Positions 13,357 to 25,797 of a DNA stretch of 25,797 nucleotides are shown one piece after another (positions within the stretch are counted from its first letter, which is position 1; every line of letters begins with the position of its first letter). The stretch spans positions 1 to 25,797 of the forward strand of contig CAXHJY010000930.1 in assembly GCA_964016885.1 (NCBI GenBank), in the 5' to 3' direction. The DNA is from Eledone cirrhosa (Eukaryota). The notes beneath the pieces are model-generated. The model saw only the letters and a program-made list of their open reading frames with translations, did not search any database and was not told the DNA's origin. The translations under genes and the position numbers were made by a program.

Positions 13357-16674
<3,318 letters not shown>

Positions 16675-16859
16675 GATAAATCTACCAAGAGTTTACGGTA
16701 GTGTCCAATCCGTATGAAGAACTCAATGTATTCCGGATATCATGGAAAGAAAAGATGTAATGAAAATCCACTTTCGGTGAAAGATAAACGGTATACAGAG
16801 TCAAGATAAAATATTAAACAAATAATGAACAAACAATTCCTTATATTAAACAAAAAAAG

Positions 16860-17015
16860 TTCACTATTTAACGATCGTTTCTAGGGTATATATGTGTTAT
16901 AATTGGTATGCATATTCAACAGATCTATGTACAAAATTATACAAAATTATACAAATTATCAAGATTAAATATACATACCTAACACACTATATACGCCGTC
17001 TTCAGAAATAATGAA
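16860..17015 (-). ncRNA. Type I hammerhead ribozyme (Penelope pLTR type) with extended stem II
   Basis: Minus strand: UUCAUUAUUU-CUGAAGA-[stem II]-GAAA-C-GAUC-G-UU-AAAUAGUGAA. Stem I is 10 bp, stem III is minimal and palindromic, and the triplet is GUU. Predicted cut between 16870 and 16869. Confidence 0.8.
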
Positions 17016-22881: not shown

Positions 22882-25041
22882 AAGGACCTTGATTCTACCC
22901 TATTGGACCTAAAAAAGTCTAAAAAAATCCATGTCCACTCGGACAAAACTGGTAACTTGTATCATATGGATATTGAACATTATAATGAGTTCATATATAA
23001 AGAACTCAGAAAAAATTATAAAAAATCTAATAATGTGTCACTCACCAACATCAACAACAAAACACACAACATAGTAAAAAAACTAAACATTGAAGATAGA
23101 ACTGAACCTTTGGCATTGAAAAGACCACACTTCAACCTGAAAGATCACAAATCTAACTTTAACTCTAATCCTTCTATTAGACTTATATGTCCCTCCAAAT
23201 CAGATATTGGAATAATTAGCAAAAAAATTTTAGATAGAGTCATCCCACAAATAAGAAAATACGTTATTTTACCACTCTGGGAAAACACCTCCCAGGTAAT
23301 TAATTGGTTTAAAAATATTAGGTGTAAATCTTCTGCTTCTTTCCTACAATTTGATATAGATAATTACTATTCTTCTATATCACCCATACTCCTGAACAAA
23401 GCATTAATATTTGCTAAAAATAGATCTAATTTAACTTCGGATGACATTAACATTATTACACATGCTAGACTAACACTTATTGAATTTCAGAATGAATACT
23501 GGACCAGAAACACATACAGTAATCTTTTTGATATTACTATGGGTTCAAGCGATTCCGCCCAAATTACTGATCTTGTGGGCCTCTTTCTCCTTTTCAACAT
23601 AAATGCCTCTTTTCCCCACCTCAAAGGTGGTTTATATCGTGATGACTGTCTTCTTCTTTCTAACAACCTTAGCCTTTCAGAAATCGAAAAAAACAAAAAA
23701 CATATTAGAACTTTCCTTAAAGACTATTATAATCTTAATATTACTTTTGAAAAAACAAGTAAAGTAGTAAATTTCCTAGATATAACTTTAGATTTAGCTA
23801 CGGGTATATACCAACCTTACCATAAACCTAACCAAAACTTACATTACATACACTCACAATCTAATCACCCTAAATCTATCCTTAAAAACCTTGCATATAA
23901 TATATCACTTAGAATTTCTAACCTTTCTTCTAACCAAGATGTATTTGATAAAAATGCGACCTTTTATAATGAAGCTCTAGATAGAAGTGGCCACAAAAAT
24001 AGATTAGAGTATATACCTTCTACTAAAAATACTGAAAGCATACAGCATAATATTACCAACAAACACCAAATGAAAAGTACACACCTAAATGCCACCCACA
24101 ATATACCCCAAAATACTAAATCTTCTAATATAAAGTATAGTAACCCTCAAAAAACTACTCATCATACAACTATAATAAATATTAATAATAAAACTCCTAA
24201 TAAAAAAGATAAAACACCTAAATCTACAAATATAACTAAAAATAGTTGTGGTGAGATCATTAACATTAATCCTCCTAGTAAAAATCATGATACAACCTAT
24301 AAAAATAATAAAAATAATAAACAACATAGAAACCGTAATAGACGAGTTACTTGGTATAATGCTCCTTTTAATTTACAAGTTAAGGATAATATTGCTAAAA
24401 AATTTTTTTATATCCTTGAGAAAAACTTCCCGCCAAACCACAAATACCATCAAATCTTAAATAGGTCTACAGTTAAATTCTCATACTCTACAACAAATAA
24501 CATAAAACAAAATATAAGTGCATATAATGCATATAAATGTAAGAAAACCATAAGTATACCACCAGTACATCAAATTAACAATAATATCTCCTCAAATACA
24601 GAATTAACGAAAGGATGTAACTGTAGAAACAAAACAAACTGCCCATTAAAAGGGAATTGTCTTGTTAACAACATAGTCTATAAATGTAATGTTAAAACTA
24701 AAGATTCTATTTGCTCATATATAGGAGCTACCTCTAACAATTTTAAGACAAGGTTTAATACCCACAAACATAGTTTTAAAAATGCCGCACTGGCTAATAC
24801 AACATCTCTAGCAGAAAAAATCAATAGTTATAAAAATAAGAATATAAAATATGATTTGACCTGGAGTGTGCTCAAAAGAGCCACCCCTTATCAAAATAAT
24901 AGAAAGGAATGTAGATTATGTTCCCAAGAACTATTTGAAATAATGAAGTCTAAGGATATCTTATTAAATAAACGACAGGAATTAATTATATCGTGTAATC
25001 ATAAACTAAAAAAAACATTTAAATATTATAAACCTAATTAA
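22834..25041 (+). CDS. Penelope-like reverse transcriptase / GIY-YIG endonuclease, 5'-truncated (genuine coding from about 22858)
   Basis: DKT at 22942, RT motif A at 23341, YRDD at 23635-23646, CxCx5Cx5C at 24616-24660, IVY at 24673, YIG at 24718, KECRLCSQE at 24904-24930. No stops or frameshifts. The nominal TTG start lies in the mirror arm and the first ATG is at 22966. Confidence 0.92.
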   Translation: MKDGFILFKKYKSVFQKDLDSTLLDLKKSKKIHVHSDKTGNLYHMDIEHYNEFIYKELRKNYKKSNNVSLTNINNKTHNIVKKLNIEDRTEPLALKRPHFNLKDHKSNFNSNPSIRLICPSKSDIGIISKKILDRVIPQIRKYVILPLWENTSQVINWFKNIRCKSSASFLQFDIDNYYSSISPILLNKALIFAKNRSNLTSDDINIITHARLTLIEFQNEYWTRNTYSNLFDITMGSSDSAQITDLVGLFLLFNINASFPHLKGGLYRDDCLLLSNNLSLSEIEKNKKHIRTFLKDYYNLNITFEKTSKVVNFLDITLDLATGIYQPYHKPNQNLHYIHSQSNHPKSILKNLAYNISLRISNLSSNQDVFDKNATFYNEALDRSGHKNRLEYIPSTKNTESIQHNITNKHQMKSTHLNATHNIPQNTKSSNIKYSNPQKTTHHTTIININNKTPNKKDKTPKSTNITKNSCGEIININPPSKNHDTTYKNNKNNKQHRNRNRRVTWYNAPFNLQVKDNIAKKFFYILEKNFPPNHKYHQILNRSTVKFSYSTTNNIKQNISAYNAYKCKKTISIPPVHQINNNISSNTELTKGCNCRNKTNCPLKGNCLVNNIVYKCNVKTKDSICSYIGATSNNFKTRFNTHKHSFKNAALANTTSLAEKINSYKNKNIKYDLTWSVLKRATPYQNNRKECRLCSQELFEIMKSKDILLNKRQELIISCNHKLKKTFKYYKPN

Positions 25042-25797
25042 TAACATTATTCTAGAAATTAATTTAATTTAAATGTTAGTTAACCTATAAATTTAATTTA
25101 ATTAATATTTTATTACAGTTGAGAAATTATTATGTAATCATAAATTGTGAAAAACCTTTAAATATTACTAATATATACTTAGTAATTTAATTTATAGATT
25201 AATTTTAATTTATTTAAACCTTTTTATAATAATCTTTTACAGATAAAATATAACAAAATAATATCATGTATCCAATGACGGAGAAAGAATTTTTAGTATT
25301 ATAGACCTAATTAATATACTTTTTGGAAATATATTTATTATTTGGTTTTAGTTTTAATCAACCTAAAACTTTAATTTTAATTCGCTTAAATTAGTATCCT
25401 TATACAGACGAATTGCAGAATGTCATGTAATCATAGAATGGGATGTGTTTTGGATATATACCTAGTTAATATATTCTGTGCAATTTTTTGAATAAGATAT
25501 GTATATGTATATGTAATGTATATGTGTGCGTTGTGTATGTGTATCTGTATGTATGTTTATGTGTGTATATATGTATATATGTATATATATGTATATATAT
25601 ATATATATATGTGTGTATATGTATGTATATGTGTATGTGTATGTATATGTATATGTATGCGTATTAATTTTGATTTTTATTTGCATATAATTATATTATG
25701 CTATTGATGAAATACAATATCTGCTTTATGTATTGTATACCTAATTAACATATACTAATTAACGTATACTATTGAAATAAATATATAATTTTTAATT
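22858..25797 (+). mobile_element. Penelope-like retroelement, right (inverted) copy, continuing beyond the window
   Basis: Mirror image of the left copy, including the AT-rich 3' region and its (TG/TA) microsatellite at about 25498-25660. Confidence 0.85.

Follow-up and report, generated by a model that had tools for sequence, protein, structure and literature searches.

The window analyzed here, a stretch of 25,797 bp from the octopus Eledone cirrhosa, is an entire unplaced contig (C957) of a 3.0-Gb assembly (G000). It contains a (TA)n array, two oppositely oriented, 5'-truncated copies of a Penelope-like element (PLE) joined head to head, and two coding exons of the host gene RASEF. Below we argue that the two copies probably result from two primings of reverse transcription at one target.

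The target array (13356–16671) is 3.3 kb of TA-rich sequence with AAGT interruptions and meets the element at a sharp boundary (16671|16672). The interruptions switch orientation six times, so the array itself holds inverted blocks. The left arm of the element (16672–22857, minus strand) is a truncated copy equivalent to positions 414–6586 of the natural tandem copy that serves as our reference unit (L008:1887–8472; 6,586 bp). Inward from the array, it comprises a 'tail' of 134 nt that, by junction counts, separates two family termini (16672–16805, minus strand; unit positions 6453–6586), a hammerhead-like motif, a microsatellite-rich 3' untranslated region (UTR) of about 3.65 kb (17016–20673, minus strand) that is 95–99 per cent identical in other copies, and a frame encoding a reverse transcriptase (RT) with a C-terminal GIY-YIG domain (20674–22857, minus strand). 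This frame lacks the promoter and the first 86 codons of the open reading frame (ORF) that is intact (813 aa) in the reference unit, and its stop codon lies about 3.65 kb from the hammerhead motif.

The arm ends at a palindrome axis (22857|22858) with no spacer, on the self-complementary hexamer TTTAAA (22855–22860), which, by comparison with the natural unit, was already part of the element. The right arm (22858–25797, plus strand, sense to RASEF) mirrors the left one for 2,940 bp per arm and contains the truncated frame (22858–25041) and the start of the 3' UTR, where the contig ends: the last base of the window falls inside the mirror. One frame is open on both strands (20674–22899, minus, and 22816–25041, plus; 741 aa from stop to stop), and both arms begin at unit position 411–414. 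A gapped alignment of the arms has nine differing columns, and the 2,227 bp nearest the axis are identical. Having neither promoter nor start codon, the window copy was likely dead on arrival.

In the reference unit, the ORF spans positions 156 to 2597. Pfam and PDB sequence searches returned no significant match for it, and the assignment to PLEs therefore rests on motifs. YRDD and YIG are kept in an alignment with 12 relatives, and the ORF also has RWR and DKT (RWK or RWR is found in 11 of the 12 relatives and DKT in all 12). By eye, it has CNCRNKTNC (a CxCx5C linker), CGLC (CRLC in the window) and CNH, with no CCHH. The Hydra clade of PLEs is described as having the RWK motif, DKT for DKG, the CxCx5C linker and, near the C-terminus, CxxC and CxH, as lacking CCHH, and as inserting into (TA)n (PMC8557442). 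Judged by its motifs, our family fits the Hydra clade. A length generally under 3 kb is a tendency of the clade and not a criterion (PMC8557442), and the unit of 6,586 bp does not follow it. Between the RT and a conserved WYNAPF motif lies an N/K/T-rich, low-complexity insert of about 100 aa (about 24020–24340 in the window), which is missing in about half of the aligned relatives and is reminiscent of the inserts rich in asparagine that rotifer Penelope elements carry (PMC3846280).

The second coding exon of RASEF (8173–8322, plus strand) is 92 per cent identical over 50 aa to an Octopus bimaculoides RASEF protein and is bounded by AG/GT splice sites; the third (10348–10438, plus strand) precedes the intron that holds the element, and its frame agrees by eye with the part of P0003 that falls between the exon on C957 and the following one, on scaffold C5 past a gap. 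Exon 1 and the exons beyond the third lie on C5, flanking a 200-N gap, while the two intervening exons are in the window. On this arrangement, the element would occupy the third RASEF intron, provided that C957 fills the gap. The original prediction for this locus, made from its sequence, had named a TA array, a sharp junction, a hammerhead, a long 3' region, an RT-GIY-YIG frame, a zero-spacer axis and a mirrored frame, and had placed this Penelope-like insertion in a RASEF intron; the anatomy, the RT and GIY-YIG motifs and the exons in the window and around the C5 gap all agree with that description. In its first 2 kb past the gap (37,757,500–37,759,495; L033), C5 restarts within another PLE, which is richer in GC and has a YVDD-type RT and GIY-YIG. 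The initial ~140 bp of this PLE repeat its endonuclease region in inverted orientation, and it ends in a TA array with AG interruptions, much like that of the window; it is therefore a second inverted PLE in the same RASEF intron. Farther downstream in this intron (L032/L033) lies another pair of short palindromes flanked by TA; they are unrelated in sequence and may be mini-palindromes (of the kind described below) that belong to other PLE families.

Within the pseudo-long terminal repeat (pLTR), the core, the stems and the predicted fold mark a type I hammerhead-like motif (16860–17015, minus strand), with a predicted cut between 16870 and 16869. It consists of a 10-bp stem I, CUGAAGA, a stem II of ~116 nt, GAAA, a stem III with the palindromic ACGAUCGU, and a GUU triplet. 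The CUGANGA/GAAA core, stems I–III and the NUH site are thus all present, the core is nearly invariant among the family copies listed, and the fold has a z-score of −5.8 against 200 shuffles. An Rfam search of the window matched no hammerhead at E ≤ 1. The closing pair of stem II beside the core is C/A, which is not Watson–Crick, and pairing starts at the second or third base; PLE hammerhead variants with an unpaired base at this position have been described (PMC4209133). No 5' end among the arms listed maps to the predicted cut (unit 6388|6389). We therefore treat the motif as a putative self-cleaving ribozyme. Its linkage to the ORF, which had been predicted, holds in other family copies, in which the 3' region is 95–99 per cent identical. 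The mirror arm is predicted to carry the corresponding motif, sense to RASEF, at about 28700–28855, beyond the end of the contig.

The family is young and very abundant. Exact junctions with TA number 4,011 for a long end and 1,899 for a short end, which lies 134 nt upstream of the long one, and 308 copies have the exact start-codon context. Two sister copies each differ from the left arm of the window at two positions (C23, 2 of 3,466; L012, 2 of 3,020). Both partial tandems, which form pLTRs, and inverted 5'-truncated copies are seen. Among 60 long ends at loci L001–L070, which were not selected for TA, 23 continue as tandem junctions, and the other 37 run into TA without exception (pure TA after 32 and once-interrupted TA after 5). 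Raw reads passing from the long end into TA (622 in X20 and 533 in X21) agree with the TA targeting proposed for the window element.

Several further observations concern the makeup of the family. A subfamily with tandem units of about 6.05 kb (L003–L005 on C2, L062–L063 on C9, L064–L065 on C5 and L066–L067 on C4) forms arrays of three or four units, and its 3' UTR diverges from the reference past position ~4950. At L092 (C1:30.70 Mb), a 284-bp family end is fused to the beginning of a Hydra-type ORF that is related (69 per cent identical), with a short end 14.5 kb off, possibly through a template switch between families. Contigs of runs X5 and X6, which bear other organism labels, contain 56–57 per cent of the sampled words of the element, near the best value, and may come from close relatives or mislabelled samples.

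The inverted insertions of the family have unequal ends. Our sample comprises 40 sites among the first 43 long ends listed on C1, for which an exact long end was the sole criterion, with 5 kb taken at each (two were extended). By reading, 25 of these insertions are inverted, 11 are simply truncated and 4 could not be assigned. For 22 of the 25 inverted loci the far end could be placed (21 in sequence and 1 by coordinate), and in every one of these it is a short end. Across C1:0–103.6 Mb, which has 44 short ends and 100 long ends, 34 short ends face outward from a long end at most 25 kb away. The single long–long pair in this region consists of two separate short insertions, and two short–short pairs enclose other long ends.

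The arms of these insertions bear on how they were copied. In 5 of the 25 inverted loci (L074, L075, L095, L105 and L108), the arms do not overlap, as the long arm ends before the short end is reached; neither arm was therefore copied from the other, and both were copied from RNA. In all but one of 55 arm pairs, the two arms differ from each other by less than the median of their differences to other loci (the exception, C22, is due to a misaligned poly-A stretch), and this near-identity indicates that both arms of a locus derive from one donor. In the window, 3 of the 2,587 positions compared distinguish the two arms, as against a median of 0.58 per cent to 27 arms of other loci, in line with the single recent event that had been proposed.

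Where the two arms end also varies. Ten of the 25 inverted loci show symmetry to within 3 nt, and in eight of these ten it falls at unit positions 6245–6249. Long palindromes that are symmetric and have one end of each length are embedded in chromosomes on C22 (axis at unit position 1034), on C12 (1087) and at C1:49.9 Mb (1083, with a 7-nt duplication), so axis-symmetric copies with other truncation points do exist, as the original prediction had expected. The C22 and C12 copies came from copies picked by similarity, and the C1 copy came from 16 fully examined long inverted insertions. On C22 and C12, the flanks differ on the two sides and the axes fall on self-complementary words (TA and ATAT, respectively). 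Many joints, including those of L078, L082 and C1:49.9 Mb, have brief duplications of cDNA ends, which fit slippage or templated fill during joining. The 5' ends of several independent copies gather in two zones, at unit positions 1034–1087 (C22, C12 and C1:49.9 Mb) and 365–414 (C23, C17, C9, L023, C682 and the window), which may reflect sites where the RT tends to stop or the RNA to break; the second zone was left uncounted, as the search that yielded most of its members favoured that region.

A further fixed point is unit position 6247 (17012 in the window, minus strand), where, as copies and junctions indicate, short family copies have their 5' end. Genome-wide, 651 head-to-head junctions lie at this position, and hundreds of mini-palindromes of ~540 bp have arms ending there, with two hammerhead motifs facing outward. 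The strand switch at 6247 also appears in public data, in four raw reads (three starts) of X21 and one contig of X1. There are 1,381 copies that start at 6247 with a non-genomic upstream base, which in the first 100 listed is A in 48, G in 32 and T in 20. Inspection of the first 50 junctions by eye showed an extra G beyond doubt in 11, of which 2 have it on both arms, and a single central G/C that is readable either way in 9 more. An extra G is the signature of an RT that has copied an m7G cap. These data are suggestive, short of proof, of a capped transcription start of the family RNA at 6247. We take the TCATT at this site to resemble an initiator; initiator-like words have been noted in rotifer pLTRs (PMC3846280). 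The position was also considered as a hammerhead cut site and rejected on inspection, as its flanking bases cannot form stems I and III.

The family thus has two fixed ends, which pair with each other, and a fixed 5' site; a single donor serves both arms of a locus, and some arms have no overlap. We think it probable that the window palindrome is a real, single insertion into a RASEF intron, a 5'-truncated head-to-head pair beside (TA)n that was made by two primings rather than by one fold-back. In the proposed course of events, the RT-endonuclease would cut both strands of (TA)n, and each freed 3' end would prime cDNA synthesis on the same molecule of capped sense RNA, one starting at unit position 6586 and the other at 6452. 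The 3' ends of the two cDNAs would then be joined via microhomology or short templated fill. Two cDNAs stopping at the same point would yield a zero-spacer palindrome, the shared stop being the cap site in the ~540-bp mini-palindromes and a break or block in the long ones. In the window, both cDNAs would have stopped at 411–414 and annealed on TTTAAA. Because sister insertions pair a full end with an end 134 nt shorter, the mirror arm of the window is predicted to end near 28909 rather than 29040.

We extend this to PLEs at large with less assurance, favoring only slightly the view that their inverted insertions arise by obligate dual target priming, in which one ribonucleoprotein would use two fixed starts on one capped sense RNA and the resulting ends would be ligated head to head. 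If so, the tail, the inverted pLTR, the mini-palindromes with outward hammerheads and the perfect palindromes of many kilobases would be products of one reaction, recorded thousands of times, and this octopus family would keep seeding long hairpins into host introns.

Several observations weigh against two primings, in the family or in the window. Ten of the 44 short ends in C1:0–103.6 Mb lack an exact long-end partner, and copies with a single arm occur, some with the long end and some with the short. Symmetry is a minority outcome: of 16 long inverted insertions (at least 4 kb) that were examined in full on C1, one is symmetric. Before position 6247, A outnumbers G (48 versus 32 of 100), and some of the Gs can derive from the partner arm. 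A search of the assembly with the 32-mer across the axis found no second contig crossing 22857|22858, and no read crosses the axis, the reads having been placed on the natural tandem copy at a 1 per cent threshold, which is blind to a joint at a single locus. Finally, symmetric copies, that of the window included, are given equally well by a second priming combined with fold-back of the first cDNA.

In this last, hybrid scheme, both target ends are primed, but the first cDNA folds back and copies itself until it meets the short second cDNA. It would produce exact symmetry away from the cap site (the window at 411–414, C22, C12, C1:49.9 Mb and L078) without two RTs having to stop together, and near-identical arms would follow, as would the 29 locus-private alleles common to both arms (37,071 positions at 25 loci), although shared private alleles are equally explained by an unsampled donor. 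We nonetheless consider it unlikely: it is impossible for the five loci with non-overlapping arms, a zero-length loop is sterically unlikely, and the window has three arm-specific bases and no shared private one.

The locus itself is probably real. Its alternative, slightly less likely than the hybrid scheme, is an assembly artefact, in which a fold-back or chimeric read lengthened the contig from an ordinary 5'-truncated single copy. The mirror does extend to the end of the contig, the assembly has a single instance of the 32-mer that spans the axis, and the five differences found only in the right arm bunch at 25223–25515, as thin coverage at a contig end would produce. No partner arm turned up either: C5:37.741–37.781 Mb, searched beyond the gap, has no sequence of the window element, no identical short-end arm is among the 40 best-scored of 1,803 candidates, and none of the unplaced or small contigs C682, C1230, C808, C549, C955, C1737, C1476, C1650 and C737 fits as a partner. 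A mirrored read, however, would carry two bases of the left arm (20630 and 19950) that the right arm lacks. At both positions the right arm has the family base, as do sister copies C23 and L012 at 20630, where the left-arm base occurs at only four places genome-wide. Symmetric copies with unequal ends and different flanks lie inside chromosomes, the window axis falls on a self-complementary word like those of C22 and C12, and C5 after its gap likewise begins in an inverted copy of another PLE, which indicates that such insertions break this assembly.

Two primings also fit better than the single fold-back of the original prediction, in which one (TA)n-primed cDNA folded back and copied itself to the same terminus, giving a junction near 29040. 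A perfect zero-spacer axis and near-identical arms are what it would produce, but we now regard it as very improbable: none of the 22 located far ends is a full terminus, the 34 outward long–short pairs of C1:0–103.6 Mb stand against one long–long pair that is in fact two separate short insertions, and at five loci the arms have no overlap. A published reading of the same kind of junction, put forward for the palindromic junctions of rotifer Penelope elements, is self-priming on an antisense transcript (PMC3846280), and read-through from a host gene could supply the antisense RNA. We find it barely tenable here, as it leaves non-overlapping arms unexplained and as priming at the target on capped sense RNA accords with the fixed sense-strand 5' end and its extra G and with both fixed 3' ends at TA.

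Two remnants of other elements lie upstream. A 3' LINE fragment (12780–13355; 139-aa open frame at 12803–13222) abuts the TA array directly and has no Pfam match. The label CR1-like comes from the original prediction. A second, broken LINE remnant (8668–9758, minus strand) has C2H2 zinc-finger-like motifs with weak Pfam matches and is presumably RTE-like.

Taken singly, the locus is an ordinary product of a known element class, and its value lies in the family. Like members of the Hydra clade, including Hydra-1_Obim of Octopus bimaculoides, the element has a single ORF with RT followed by GIY-YIG, the clade motifs and insertion into (TA)n (PMC8557442). The hammerhead of Hydra-1_Obim shares the CUGAAGA core and the U at the cleavage site, although its whole sequence differs from that of our family (PMC8557442). 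Our family has a unit of 6.6 kb with a 3.65-kb 3' UTR, compared to 2,507 bp in Hydra-1_Obim and mostly under 3 kb in published families (PMC8557442), and it further differs from the clade as described there in its ~116-nt stem II, 134-nt tail, thousands of young copies and ~100-aa N/K/T-rich insert. We conclude that the window element is a new, long variant of the known Hydra clade and that the composite is a known kind of insertion.

In the twin priming of LINE-1, cDNA synthesis on one RNA starts from both ends of the cut target, and microhomology accompanies the head-to-head joining of the two cDNAs. The second primer there acts at a variable internal site, giving segments that do not overlap. 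In our family, by contrast, both start sites are fixed near the 3' end, and the arms therefore usually overlap and form long inverted repeats. We found no proposal of twin priming for PLEs in a literature search whose coverage excluded most subscription papers and the PLE reviews of 2005 and 2006.

Much of the anatomy has been published for PLEs, namely partial tandems as well as inverted copies truncated at the 5' end, a tail confined to one end, a preference for TA and pLTR hammerheads (PMC8557442, PMC8969392, PMC2377424). Typical inverted PLE insertions resemble ours: an inverted copy that is itself 5'-truncated sits at the 5' end, the junction is palindromic, only one end has a tail, and assemblies have trouble with them (PMC8557442, PMC3846280, PMC2377424). 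They differ, as published, in that the tail is 30–40 nt rather than 134 nt and in that inversion is the majority outcome in our family (25 of the 40 sampled). The inverted-junction palindromes have been explained by self-priming on an antisense template (PMC3846280), whereas our data favor two primings on sense RNA; the origin of the tandem and inverted structures has been named an open question (PMC8557442). The available text of PMC13282606 and of a preprint (10.64898/2026.07.22.740005) contains nothing further on palindromic insertion structure. In Schistosoma, minimal hammerheads are paired on opposite strands 100–700 bp apart, a pattern given without a mechanism in the available text (PMC4209133) and matched by the common ~540-bp mini-palindromes of our family with their two outward-facing hammerheads. 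Hundreds of near-perfect palindromes from one family, 651 of them at one junction site, matter for assembly gaps, and those in introns may matter for double-stranded RNA and RNA editing.

The closest biochemical parallel is the Poseidon element of Anolis, for which, in vitro, two adjacent RT start sites bound the tail and both target strands are cut and extended (PMC11167929). Poseidon is also alike in its AT-rich targets, and its insertion needs no hammerhead cleavage; it differs in belonging to another clade and in having its start sites inside the ORF, 30–40 nt apart, and in the available text the two sites are not linked to the two arms of inverted insertions (PMC11167929). The Eledone family yields countable rules (ends in pairs of one long and one short, a single donor, a 5' site that is fixed and carries an extra G, and arms without overlap) that tie two such start sites to the two arms and make PLE inversion directly testable with purified protein.

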